A stretch of 64,000 nt of DNA from Eledone cirrhosa (lineage: Eukaryota), in contig OZ024743.1 of NCBI GenBank assembly GCA_964016885.1, positions 59,272,001-59,336,000 on the forward strand. Reading direction: 5' to 3'. Under the pieces are notes generated by a model. The model searched no databases, was not told the DNA's origin, and saw only the letters and a program-made list of their open reading frames with translations. The position numbers were made by a program, and so were the translations under genes. Shown piece after piece: positions 5,951 through 59,500 of this stretch; the first letter of the stretch is position 1, and the number at the start of each line of letters is the position of its first letter.

Positions 5951-5988
5951 CCTTTACCGGTTTCGCAGTTTTTCTGCTTTTCAAAAGG
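5951..5988 (-). ncRNA. Minimal type-I HHR, U3-A8 core variant (homolog 57020-57057)
   Basis: Reverse strand: cctt-TTGAAAA-gcag aaaaa ctgc-GAAA-ccgg-TA-aagg; all three stems pair. Confidence 0.75.
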
Positions 5989-6283
5989 TGAGTTGAGATG
6001 GAGGGTCTGTGGTTTTTCTCACATATATATATATATATATATATATATATATGTGTGTGTATATATATGTGTATATATATATATATATATATATATATAT
6101 ATATATATATATATATATATATATATATATATACACACACACATATATATACACACACACACATATATATATATATACACACACATATATATATATATAT
6201 ATATAACGAAGGAAATGTGGTAAGGAACCAGGTGGACCATAACGCACCAAAGTACTCAATACTTGAGGTAGTAGAGTGGGTAA

Positions 6284-6395
6284 TAGGAACCAGTAAGATC
6301 CCGACAGCTGAGCTCAAGCCGTTTCGACGGCTAATTCTGGAGAATTAGCCGTCGAAACGGCTTGAGCTCAGCTGTCGGGGTCTTACTGGTTCCTA
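6284..6395. repeat. Near-perfect 112-bp palindrome
   Basis: taggaaccagtaagatcccgacagctgagctcaagccgtttcgacggctaattct-gg-agaattagccgtcgaaacggcttgagctcagctgtcggggtcttactggttccta. Confidence 0.95.
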
Positions 6396-6751
6396 TATAT
6401 ATATATATATATATATATATATATATATATATATATATATATATATATATATATATATATATATATATATATATATATATATATATATGTATATATATAT
6501 ATACATACATATATATACATACATATATATATACATATATATATATATATATATATATATATATATATATAGATATAGATATAGATAGGTAAATATACAC
6601 GGGTGTGTATGATTGTGTATAGAAGATTATATTAATAAGAGGAATTCCAACTTTGTCTGATTTACTCGTTTTATTTACAATCCTTTAAAATATATATAAT
6701 ATGGTATTATAATGAAATAGTATGATAGAATATTAAATTCTAAGTGTTAAT

Positions 6752-6790
6752 TGAACAAGTACTCTCATGCTTTCGCAATCTTCAGGTTCA
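6752..6790 (-). ncRNA. Possible HHR with stem II reduced to 4 nt
   Basis: tgaac-CTGAAGA-ttgc-GAAA-gcatgagagtac-TT-gttca; lies inside a 19-bp inverted repeat (6634-6652/6805-6823). Confidence 0.55.
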
Positions 6791-54004: not shown

Positions 54005-54350
54005 CCATTCACGGTGTGGCTCAATGACGAATTAATTAATTAAATAATCAACAATCAGAGCAATATACAAGAAAGTACGTCCATAGAATCATTTGCTAAA
54101 ATATATACATATTACTCTCACAATCAGCATAATCAACCACACAAAAAATCGATTAAACAAGGCTATAAGATTAAAAGGCACCTATGAAGAAATAATAGAT
54201 AAATAAACGATAACTATTTATCCGCGATCATAGGTGCCTTTTAATCTTATAGCCTTGTTTAATTGATTTTTAGTGTGGTTGACTATTCTGATTGGGAGAG
54301 GAAATACTGTATATATTTTATCAAAGGATTCTATGGACGTACTACTTTCT
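54005..54350. repeat. Fold-back repeat; family also at 26400-26545, 51360-51555, 51800-51980
   Basis: aaggctataagattaaaaggcacctatga mirrored by tcataggtgccttttaatcttatagcctt; gtacgtccatagaatc / gattctatggacgtac. Confidence 0.8.
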
Positions 54351-55859
54351 TGTATATATATATATATATATATATATATATATATATATATATATAAATA
54401 TATATATATAAATGTGTGTAGGTGTTGTGTACACCTCCACATACAAACACAAGCACTCACGCATGCACACACACACACACACACACACACACACACACAC
54501 ACACATATATATATATATAAATATCACATCTGTTAAGATGTGACTGTAGTGTTTCAGTGGATTGGCAGAATCAGTAGACCATCAGACACCATGCTTTGCC
54601 GCATTGAGTTATGACCCTTTACGTTCTGAGTTCAAATCCTGCCGAAGTTAACTTTGCCTTTCATCCTTACGGGATCGAAAAATAAAGAAGTAGTAATGCA
54701 CTGGGGTAATTGCTGGCCTATTGCGAAAGGTAGAAACAATTATATGAATGATTGACAAATCACAGATTGTATAAGTTGGTATCAATTATTTTAATTTGAA
54801 TTTGGCTTATAAAATGGTGAGTTCAGCCGAAATGTGAAAATTCCAGCTTTTGATAATTAAAATGGAAAATATCATAACTATAGATATATGTCCTTTGTTA
54901 GCATATTTGAATACCATTAAAACGGAAACAGACATGTTATAAAGGGAACTAAATGCGACCTAGTTTCATTTCCTTGCAGTGGAAGTGTGTTATTGAACAA
55001 CATTTTGGCCCACAGTTTACTTTAAAATGATCAGACTATGTACGAATTATATTTACACACTGTGTATATATATGTCAGGCTAATGGATGGTGAGCATTGG
55101 TGAGAATATGAAAACATCTCCATTATATTGCAGTTGAAATTTTAGTCGTCAAATTCCGTTTGCTTTCACAACTTTATTAAAACATATTTTCCTCGCGGCA
55201 ACCCGTTTCATTGCAATTTCTATAATTTTCCTATTCTGTATTTAACCTGCAGCATAATACATCTTTTGTTGGAAGGTGTGATGGGAAGCTGCATGAATCA
55301 TGATCAGACTATAAATAGAAATGAAATACAAGCTAATAAACTAAGATGAAATATTCAAATTTAGAATAAATTTAATTAGAGGTACACATCTCCTACAGTG
55401 GAGTGCAAACAAGTGTAAACACATACGTCCGGCCACACATATATATACATCTTTGTAGTGCGTGCGAGCTTGCGTATATATATATATATATATATATATA
55501 TATATATATATGTGTGTGTGTGTGTGTGTGTGTGTGTGTGTGTGTGTGTGTGTGTGTGTGTAAATATATATATATTGATACTTTGGTGCGTTATGGTCCA
55601 CCTGTTTCCTTACCACATTTCCTTCGTTATATATATATATATTTGTGTGTGTGTGGGTGTGTGTGTATGTATGTATATATATACATACACGCACGCATAC
55701 GCTCACATACACACACACATATATATATATATATATATACATATATATATATGTATATATATATATATATATATATATATATATATATATATATATATAT
55801 AGAGAGAGAGAGAGAGAGAGAGAGAGAGAGAGAGAGAGAGAAAGGGTCTAATTCGACGT

Positions 55860-56530
55860 AGCACGGAAAATATATTTAAGGTTCTGTTTTTCTTTATTTC
55901 TTCTTTCATTCGTCAAAGTGAAATTATTGAAAAAATGAGAGGAACAATTTTTTTAAAAGGGGAGTTTTATAATGTATATAAATATAACCGGTTTCGATGT
56001 ATCAGTGTGAGCCATCTTGTCAAATGCTGATTATTACAATTAAAAAGAATAAAAAAGAACAAAAAATTAAAAATTTAAAATTAACTGTTGAAATACTTTA
56101 ACAAAATTGAGATTTTTCCTAAAAATAATTTTGTTCTGTGAAAAAACACGCCTGCTACTACTACTACTACTAGTACTACTACTACTACTACTACTACTAC
56201 TACTACTACTACTACTACTATGACTACCTCTCTCTATATATATATACAGCTCAAATTGAGAGCCAGTCTTCACATGAAAGATGAAGAGACCTTTTTAACA
56301 CTTAATTTAACATTTTTTATTCGATAAAATAAAGAACTAGAAATGCACTGGGGTAACTGCTGGCTCACAGTGATACATCGAAACCGCTTCTATTTTATAT
56401 ATTTTAAATACATTATAAAATTCCCCCTTTTTAAAAGTATTGTTTCTCTCATTTTTCAATAATGTCACTTTGACGAATCAAAAAAGAAAAAAAAAGATAA
56501 AGAGATCATTAAATATATTTTCCGTTCTAT
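55860..56530. repeat. Element with ~160-bp inverted arms, HHR-like U3-A8 motif at 55982-56027 (-), internal (CTA)n
   Basis: Reverse: at-TTGACAA-gatg..catc-GAAA-ccgg-TT-at (stem I weak); arms 55860-56015 vs 56362-56525. Confidence 0.65.
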
Positions 56531-59500
56531 TTCCAATTCCAACTTTTCTCTATAACCTTATTCCCTTTTCAAATATATATATAGAGAGAGATAGATAGAT
56601 ATTAAAGTACGTGTTAGTTTATCACCGATTATTAATAAATGAATTATAACTCTGATTTCTACTTTATCATTATATATACACATACATATATATATGTGTG
56701 TGTGTGCGCGCGCGTTTGTGTGTATATGTGTGTATGTATCTGTGACCGGGTGCATAGCTGTGTTTATATATATATATATATATATATATATATATATATA
56801 TATATATATATATATACATATATATATATATATGTGTGTGTGTGTATATATATATATATATATATATATATATATATATATTAGAAAGTGAGTTTTTTTA
56901 CAAAATGAAAAAGAAACGAGGTATCCTACACGAGTGAAAGTATAAAGAAAAAAAGATGAAATCGAAAATGCAACTGAACTCTTATTTAAAAAAATATATA
57001 TATATATATTTATTTGTTTCCTTTACCGGTTTCGCAGTTCTTCTGTTTTTCAAAAGTAGAGTTGAGATGGAGTGTCTGTGGTTTTTCTCAGGTAAAGGAA
57101 CCAAATAATTATATATATTTTTTTTAAAATAAGACTCCAGTTGCATTTTCGAGTTCATCTTGTTTTCTTTATATATATATATATATAAATGTAAGTATGT
57201 ATGTATACGTACATCCATATATGTATACAGACGTACAGTAGTATGTATATATATACATACATGCACACATATATATATGCACGTATCGGTTTACCGAACA
57301 TTTATTATATTTATCGGTTTCGGTGTGCCCGGCCGACTGAACTCACTCGATATGCAAATTAGGCTGCTCAGCCGTTAATATGCATAGGGAAAGTATGTAC
57401 TTTCAGACGTTCAACCATCTGGCAGGAAGGTATATGATGCTGATGATAGCTAATAAGCTTGAAACTAATACATCGTTCCTGGGTCAACGTTGAACAAAAA
57501 GGTGACGTGGTTGCCTAAACACTGTACGGCGTAATTCGGGCTGTTTGTTTGTTTACAAACAAACAGACCGAGCATTATAATAAATGTTCGGTAAACCAAT
57601 ACGTAGATATATTTATGTGTGTAGGTATGTATACATATACATACTACTGTACGTCTGTATACATATATGTATGTACGTATACATACATACATACTTACAT
57701 TTAAGTAAGTGCCGTACTGAGAGTGAGAAATGAAATTTCGTTTCATTCTCTTCCATTTATATATATATATATATATATATATATATATATATATATATAT
57801 ATCCCCAACGTGAGGATTGGGCTTAAATTTAATATTTTTAATACTTCTCTGGGTGGATTATTGGTTTATTAATTTATTGATATCTTATCCTTTCATTGAG
57901 ATACTTACGTATTAAGGTAGACACACACACACACACACACACACACACACACACACACACACACACACACACACACACACACACACACACACACACACAC
58001 ACACACACACACACACACACACACACCTATATATATATATATATATATTTACACGTATGTGTGTTTATGTGTATGCGTATATATATGCACATGTAGAATG
58101 ATTTGTATGTATCTATGTATATATATATATATATATATATATATATATATATATATATATATATATATATATATATATATGCATATGAAGTAAACTATAT
58201 TAAAGACAGTTTAGTTTTTAAGTTACATGTTAATATATATATATATATATATATATATATATATACAATATATTAACAAATGGAAACTATATTTATAAAA
58301 CCATATTTATTTTATTATACATATTTCAAGGGCCACCAAAGCAGAATATGGCGCGCTTTCATCAAATAAAATACAATACAGATTAGTGTTATAAATAAAT
58401 ATTGACATACCCTGAAAGAATACAACCTTAACGGTTGGAGCTTCCTGTGTTGTATTTTATCTGACGAAAGCGCCCCATAATCTGCCTTGGTGGCCCTTGA
58501 AATATGTATAATAAAATAATATGGTTTTATAAATATAGTTTCCATTTATTAATATATTGTATATTTACTCCAATAATTTGTTGAATGCTTTATATTAGTT
58601 ATATCCCAACAAATTAAATATAACCTCTGCATATATATATATATATATATATATATATATAAAGCAGCAATTCTTTGCTTAAACTTTAATCTGTTATTTT
58701 AATAAATATATATATATATATATATATATATATATATATATATATATATATATATATATATATATATATATATTAAAATAACATATTAAAGTTTAAGCAA
58801 AGAATCGCTGCTTTCATCCTTAACGGGATCTTCTCATACTAAAAAAGTCAATCTGTGAACGCAGAAGTAAATATTTTAAAAAACGTTGTAACCGATGGAA
58901 GACAGGAAGGCAATACTTTGGTTCGTGGAAACGTTCCCTGGCAAAGAACGGAAAAAACGAATATAATACGTCATTATTTGTGCGTTGAAAACAATACACA
59001 CAAAGAGGAAAACACATTTATGGTATAAATGAAGTAGTAGACTGATATTCTATTAGATGGTTCATGGAGACGTTCTCCGGCAATGAACGGAAAAAACGAA
59101 GATAATACGTCATTATGTGGTGCATGAGTACAATTACACGCAAATACAAAACCACATAAATGGTATAACTGAAGTCGTAGACTAAAATTCGATTTAGGAA
59201 ACCGAATGATTCTCGGCTTCAGAGTTAGGAATAAAGTAAATATAAACAGGGGTAATTGAAATTAAATAAATATATACACGCATCTATATACGTACATACA
59301 CAAGCATACGCGAAAATACTCGGCATGGGTATTCAAATACAAGCACGTACACAACAAAACACGCACGCACGTACATAACCAACGCGACGCCTGTAGCCGC
59401 ACACATACGAACGTATACACCAAATACACATAAAAATGTATTTAAAAAAATATATATATCTGTGTGTGTGTGCGTGTATACATAATTAAATAAAGGTATA

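Follow-up and report, generated by a model that had tools for sequence, protein, structure and literature searches.

We examined a 64,000-nucleotide (nt) stretch of the Eledone cirrhosa genome (assembly GCA_964016885.1, contig OZ024743.1, forward-strand positions 59,272,001 to 59,336,000; hereafter the window), which carries hammerhead ribozyme motifs whose core reads UUGANAA, with U at position 3 and A at position 8 (U3-A8), instead of the canonical CUGANGA (C3-G8). The original prediction, made from the sequence, had listed six such cores in at least four families. All six were found where it had placed them, far above chance expectation, with five on the minus strand and only that at 51678 on the plus strand, and they fall into four families: A (5951, 57020), B (10959 and 10639, in tandem), C (51678), and D (55982). 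The motifs and the repeats around them, some of which are the 3' ends of Penelope-like elements (PLEs), are listed below, with stem lengths in base pairs (bp).

5951..5988, minus strand: family A minimal type I hammerhead, U3-A8, palindromic stem III; stems I/II/III of 4/4/3 bp, intact; predicted cut after GUA at 5955.
5813..6024, minus strand: 5'-truncated family A element (PLE 3' end) between (TA)n tracts; 5875-6024 aligned, the rest read from the sequence, 3' end approximate.
57020..57057, minus strand: family A hammerhead copy with A10.1xC11.1 (pair broken) and a stem I of 3 bp; likely impaired.
57091..57255, plus strand: inverted 5'-truncated family A partner, beginning 4 nt before the cut site, without the core.
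10958..11004, minus strand: family B hammerhead, U3-A8; stems I/II/III of 5/4/3 bp, intact; predicted cut after GUC at 10963.
10639..10681, minus strand: the other family B copy of the 320-bp tandem, with stem I reduced to 1 bp.
10473..11038, minus strand: partial tandem of family B, non-coding and retrozyme-like; units 10473-10873 and 10793-11038.
51677..51764, plus strand: family C hammerhead, U3-A8; 43-nt loop II, 10-nt near-palindromic stem III insert, CxA at the first stem I pair.
51400..51554, minus strand: inverted 5'-truncated family C partner.
55982..56027, minus strand: family D hammerhead, U3-A8; CCGG stem III, GUU triplet, stem I of 2 bp before a CxA mismatch; element at about 55838-56091.
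56373..56550, plus strand: inverted 5'-truncated family D partner, without the UUGANAA strand.

All six copies contain the type I core YUGANRA...GAAA...UH, with positions 3 and 8 paired as U3-A8. The closing pair of stem II, G10.1-C11.1, is present in five copies and broken in the 57020 copy. A pair-by-pair check left all three stems unbroken in only two copies, 5951-5988 and 10958-11004. The intact topology that had been ascribed to all six therefore holds for these two and was overstated for those at 57020, 10639, 51678, and 55982. Judged by the commonest letters of each family, stem I is full in B and C, spans 3-4 bp in A, and reaches only 2 bp in D; the CxA mismatch of the 51678 copy lies at a position where 85% of 26 family C copies have G.

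Chance likeness of AT-rich DNA to a relaxed hammerhead pattern might account for such motifs, and the Rfam searches lean that way, as no match to the hammerhead families (clan CL00010) reached the gathering score. The best was that of the family B motif at 10958..11004 to HH9 (19.4 bits, E 0.11; gathering score 52). A local scan of family C gave no hammerhead match, the whole-window scan was dominated by microsatellite matches, with no hammerhead among the 150 of 304 matches listed, and the neighbouring C3G8 minimal motifs in 10000-11600 were likewise without an Rfam match. Against this explanation, the U3A8 core with a G-C-closed stem II and GAAA occurs five times in the window, in comparison with a mean of 0.08 and a maximum of 1 in 200 local shuffles; the same test found seven canonical C3G8 motifs and one C3A8. 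The genome-wide counts (22,873 versus 49 in the control, detailed below) and the fixed place of the motifs downstream of PLE endonuclease genes also contradict it, and chance resemblance is refuted.

The genome measures 3.0 Gb, with a GC content of about 35%. Family A yielded 11,988 exact pattern matches genome-wide (control, 0) and family B 1,241, while the 83 matches to the strict family C pattern are a lower bound. In the window, inverted 5'-truncated copies adjoin families A, C, and D, family B forms a partial tandem with a 320-bp period, and the elements terminate in or near (TA)n tracts. Such layouts have been described for PLEs (Craig 2021, PMC8557442). Other family B loci hold up to four tandem units (L222, L229). 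Head-to-head inverted pairs of family A, 23-128 nt apart, numbered 16 among the first 100 matches listed (contig C1, first 35 Mb; hand count); read-through RNA from such pairs would fold back and could mask the ribozyme.

The repeats were linked to coding elements through a Pfam search of the genome for GIY-YIG endonucleases, which returned 10,596 candidates, of which 150 were scored and 30 loci fetched. Family A lies 0.8-1.4 kb downstream of one GIY-YIG family, at all three loci of that kind among the 30 GIY-YIG loci (0.9-1.1 kb) and at 2 of 30 family A loci; three other endonuclease types near family A, seen once each, look like chance neighbours. Among 20 loci, family D stands behind one GIY-YIG family at two and behind a different type at one. 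A related U3A8 family outside the window, family E, lies 416-672 nt downstream of a CCHH-type GIY-YIG gene in 12 of 15 loci. The endonucleases upstream of A, D, and E bear the CCHH motif. Two further U3A8 families, drawn from the random sample described below, accompany another endonuclease type: f5 lies 235 nt upstream of a 725-amino-acid (aa) reverse transcriptase (RT)-like open reading frame (ORF) that is followed by a CxCx5C GIY-YIG, and f6 lies 364-470 nt downstream of an endonuclease remnant with a CxCx5C linker. The main C3G8 family lies 200-370 nt downstream of a third endonuclease type, in the window too. PLE clades were assigned by motifs and by a short endonuclease tree built without reference sequences. 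Under the descriptors used, no hammerhead was detected downstream at nine L197-type GIY-YIG loci or at most Hydra-type loci.

Two observations concern these outside families. In family E (L191-L218, e.g. L194 and L211; L166), the first pair of stem II, 10.1-11.1, is a U-U mismatch, and the family escapes descriptors that require G10.1-C11.1. A near-full-length Hydra-type PLE (L035:7082-9947; 725-aa ORF, then a CxCx5C GIY-YIG in another frame) carries a U3A8 hammerhead in its 5' repeat, with an inverted copy upstream.

These data show that families A and D derive from PLEs; families B and C likely do so as well. We regard the six motifs as genomic copies of minimal type I U3-A8 hammerheads near the 3' ends of truncated PLE-derived repeats, predicted to cut the element transcript only as dimers, and assign this interpretation a probability of roughly 85%.

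All four families have a palindromic stem III. The stem III strings alone form no hairpin, and intermolecular duplexes were calculated at -8.3 (A, D), -7.3 (B), and -14.7 (C) kcal/mol, a layout for dimer pairing that is characteristic of PLE minimal hammerheads. Extrapolating from established work, two motifs in a tandem transcript would exchange their palindromic stem III strands, and U3-A8 would stand in for the C3-G8 tertiary pair. Cleavage would follow the GUH triplet (GUA, GUC, or GUU) and free unit-length RNA from tandem PLE transcripts. In this analysis, trimming of tandem PLE transcripts to unit length is the likely role of the motif, and the U3-A8 motifs are predicted to be self-cleaving; activity of the variant in vitro is described by Perreault 2011 (PMC3088659), citing Przybilski and Hammann 2007. 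In the window, a head-to-tail partner is present only for family B, whose second copy lost stem I.

Several observations weigh against this interpretation. PLE minimal hammerheads were reported to show weak cleavage in vitro as dimers and none as monomers (Cervera 2014, PMC4209133). Stems are broken in four of the six window copies, and the minimum-energy fold shows stems I and II together only for the 5951 copy. No accumulation of the 5' ends of truncated copies was seen at the predicted cut site, and no coding parent was found within 1.5 kb upstream of family B (47 copies) or family C (26 copies). Positions 3 and 8 are retained in 96-100% of copies, no better than the flanking columns. One subfamily of A, in which the 10.1-11.1 pair is broken and to which the 57020 copy belongs, accounted for 11 of 30 loci in a search biased by its query; since this A10.1 subfamily has spread, amplification needs no perfect ribozyme. 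An apparent cluster of family A 5' ends at -4 to +12 was discarded, as it consisted of low-complexity alignment ends and three copies sharing one junction.

The pairing of positions 3 and 8 was surveyed across 1.6 Mb, in 160 ten-kb samples drawn at regular intervals. Motifs with core and stem II numbered 33 for C3G8 (shuffled mean 1.0), 17 for U3A8 (2.0), 4 for A3G8 (1.3), 2 for C3A8 (1.0), 2 for A3A8 (2.25), 1 for U3G8 (1.05), and 1 for each of four other classes (about 1). The two single-mutant classes, C3A8 and U3G8, were thus at background level, and the excess over shuffle was 15 for U3A8 versus 32 for C3G8, making U3A8 roughly a third of the sampled motifs. The full three-stem descriptor retrieved 20 C3G8, 9 U3A8, no C3A8, no U3G8, and four others (shuffled total, 2.1). 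Among multi-copy clusters (at least two copies), seven were U3A8, five C3G8, and none mismatched; two of the seven correspond to an inverted pair at one locus.

Genome-wide, the class of motifs that close with GAAA-CCGG-UH comprised 22,873 U3A8, 193 C3A8, 191 U3G8, and 111 C3G8 motifs, with 49, 19, 45, and 156, respectively, in the reversed controls. The single mutants, which the original prediction had named as the test of its claim, are therefore far from being as frequent as the double variant. Those listed are mostly decayed copies of U3A8 families (0.8% each), and their count is raised by a local tandem duplication at G000:C1:348.86-348.95 Mb, where six C3A8 copies of family A follow one another at intervals of about 9.6 kb. 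When positions 3, 7, and 8 of family C were left free (n = 83; hand count), U3 was found in 81 and A8 in 82 copies, while position 7 was U in 44, A in 27, and G in 12; nearly fixed positions 3 and 8 beside a variable position 7 are the pattern expected of a constrained core. One candidate C3A8 family (L033:9870, L291-L298; 14 among the first 100 C3A8 matches listed, 8 loci fetched) was rejected, because it has no stem I and lies inside an ORF-bearing repeat. Neither the census nor the CCGG-class searches yielded a real family with a mismatched 3-8 pair.

These counts show that the 3-8 pair is maintained at the family level, that is, as a constraint on source elements, and that inserted copies decay neutrally. 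Positions 3 and 8 do change together, as had been claimed, when families are compared. The further claim that repeated covariation indicates selection is supported as a constraint at the family level and fails for individual copies, which show no selection. Selection for the pair would act on a few source elements per family, while tens of thousands of inserted copies decay; we infer that most copies in the window are dead. Two C3G8 copies flanked by family A sequence (L303, L304) compare with 1.6 expected from independent decay (193 x 191 / 22,873), and because the count fits that expectation they provide no evidence of selected reversion.

Could the U3-A8 cores instead be inactive relics, in which both bases were altered by AT-biased mutation once the source elements could do without cleavage, the copies spreading in trans? 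The genome composition would favor such changes, both of which are common transitions, and the weak stem I of A (3-4 bp) and D (2 bp) and the spread of the A10.1 subfamily fit the same idea. Naiad PLEs, moreover, proliferate without canonical hammerheads (Craig 2021, PMC8557442). Drift alone, however, would fix single changes in families, and none was seen among the 12 multi-copy clusters, the sole C3A8 candidate family being the rejected one that lacks stem I. G5, A6, A9, GAAA, UH, and the palindrome are retained while position 7 and loop II vary, and the U3-A8 core was reported active in vitro (Perreault 2011, PMC3088659). We consider the relic explanation improbable and retain that of dimer-dependent hammerheads maintained in source elements.

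How often the switch from C3-G8 to U3-A8 occurred is a separate issue. The original prediction counted covariation in four independent families, which overstates the case. On a 12-row GIY-YIG tree, which omits 6 near-copies and 10 rows where no hammerhead was detected, the endonucleases of A, D, and E form one group (support 94/97), as they do on a 28-row tree (93/99, with one unlabelled row inside). Since these three families also share the CCGG palindrome, we count them as one event. One label change suffices on the 12-row tree (support 53/41; 55% of bootstrap trees), and the deep branches are unresolved in both trees. Derivation of all U3-A8 families here from one ancient switch, which is compatible with the interpretation above and concerns only the number of events, could therefore account for the tree. 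It would have to explain why U3A8 accompanies two deeply different endonuclease types (CCHH and the CxCx5C Hydra type) and why C3G8 look-alikes exist for every architecture (L305/L306 and L299-L302 for CCGG, f30 for f5/B, and f33 for C). We judge a single origin somewhat unlikely.

Several origins of U3-A8 are, on sequence comparison, the likely alternative, because CCGG-type C3G8 families exist and f5/B and C have C3G8 look-alikes. The former are two low-copy families with a CCGG stem III (L299-L302, L305-L306), possible sisters of A, D, and E; the similarities of f30 and f33 are weak (z 4-7), and the common motif inflates these scores. Microsatellites made up most of the signal in the DNA comparison between families, which after masking retained only z 3-9, and an A-f6 similarity of z 25 was rejected as arising from a neighbouring family A insertion. 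The switch probably took place two or three times in the PLE lineages of this genome and would run through two transitions favored in an AT-rich genome. More tentatively, at slightly less than even odds, it may have occurred at least three times in separate PLE lineages (the CCGG group, a Hydra-type group with family B, and a long-loop-II group), in each of which a C3G8 sister family survives, and U3-A8 may have become fixed in a hammerhead class that, with over 22,000 copies, is among the most abundant. If at least three switches took place, the genome would offer a natural replicated test of compensatory evolution at a ribozyme tertiary pair under AT-biased mutation.

The window motifs are real PLE hammerheads with an already published core variant that is unusually abundant here; they represent no new ribozyme or mechanism. 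Natural U3-A8 covariation was published by Perreault 2011 (PMC3088659) as rare examples. The same covariation is the norm of several high-copy families here, and the U10.1-U11.1 stem II opening described in that paper recurs in family E. Cervera and De la Pena 2014 (PMC4209133) came upon the variant through homology to a Schistosoma PLE, collecting about 1,300 hits; their own CUGANGA descriptor had missed it, and a variant descriptor was added afterwards. Their supplementary alignment holds UUGAUAA and UUGAAAA cores. A strict CUGANGA search misses this population here too, as had been predicted, leaving out roughly one in three hammerhead motifs and almost the entire CCGG-stem-III class; both the variant and the descriptor blind spot were thus already reported in 2014.

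In comparison with the minimal hammerheads of the Schistosoma mansoni Cercyon PLEs (PMC4209133), the motifs here share the type I arrangement, a short palindromic stem III, U3-A8, and a predominance of solo or inverted copies; placement in the 3' repeat of a PLE was seen for A (5 loci) and D (2 loci). They differ in having about 20-fold more copies (22,873 in one class), a stem II of 4-5 bp versus 7-8 bp, mostly no 9.1 bulge, inserts of 4-10 nt in stem III, and an association of U3A8 with endonucleases of two types. Family B resembles non-LTR (long terminal repeat) retrozymes (PMC7229834; Li et al. bioRxiv 10.64898/2026.07.22.740005) in being non-coding, with tandem units of about 320 bp and one type I hammerhead in each; unlike them, and like truncated PLEs, it is found mostly in the form of monomers, dimers, and inverted stubs. 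Among the EN+ PLEs of Craig 2021 (PMC8557442), the parents of A, D, and E match the Neptune/Nematis type in their C-terminal GIY-YIG with CCHH, and those of f5 and f6 match the Hydra type in their CxCx5C linker; inverted 5'-truncated partners and (TA)n targets are common to both sets. Literature searches, mainly of open-access papers, listed no survey of U3A8 over the PLE clades. Sister families with different 3-8 pairs provide ready-made material for comparing cleavage.

The window also contains canonical hammerheads and remnants of other elements:

10092..10134, plus strand: canonical C3-G8 minimal hammerhead of family f0, 208 nt after a GIY-YIG remnant.
7603-7645, minus strand, and 11481-11523, 31929-31973, and 40792-40836, plus strand: further f0 copies.
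19581..19667, minus strand: canonical C3-G8 hammerhead with a long loop II (family C architecture); another at 6958-7035, minus strand.
41251-41310, plus strand: C3G8 hammerhead-like motif with a 7-bp stem I and an 11-bp AU-rich stem II without G10.1-C11.1; no family match in the data compared.
511-891, plus strand: decayed Hydra-type GIY-YIG remnant, with no hammerhead detected downstream.
28015-28944, minus strand: 310-aa ORF weakly matching a DDE_3 transposase (E 1.6e-5, short of the cut-off).
33781-34368 and 62355-63146, both plus strand: RT fragments, with RVT_1 matches at E 9e-5 for the former and E 1e-16 for the latter.

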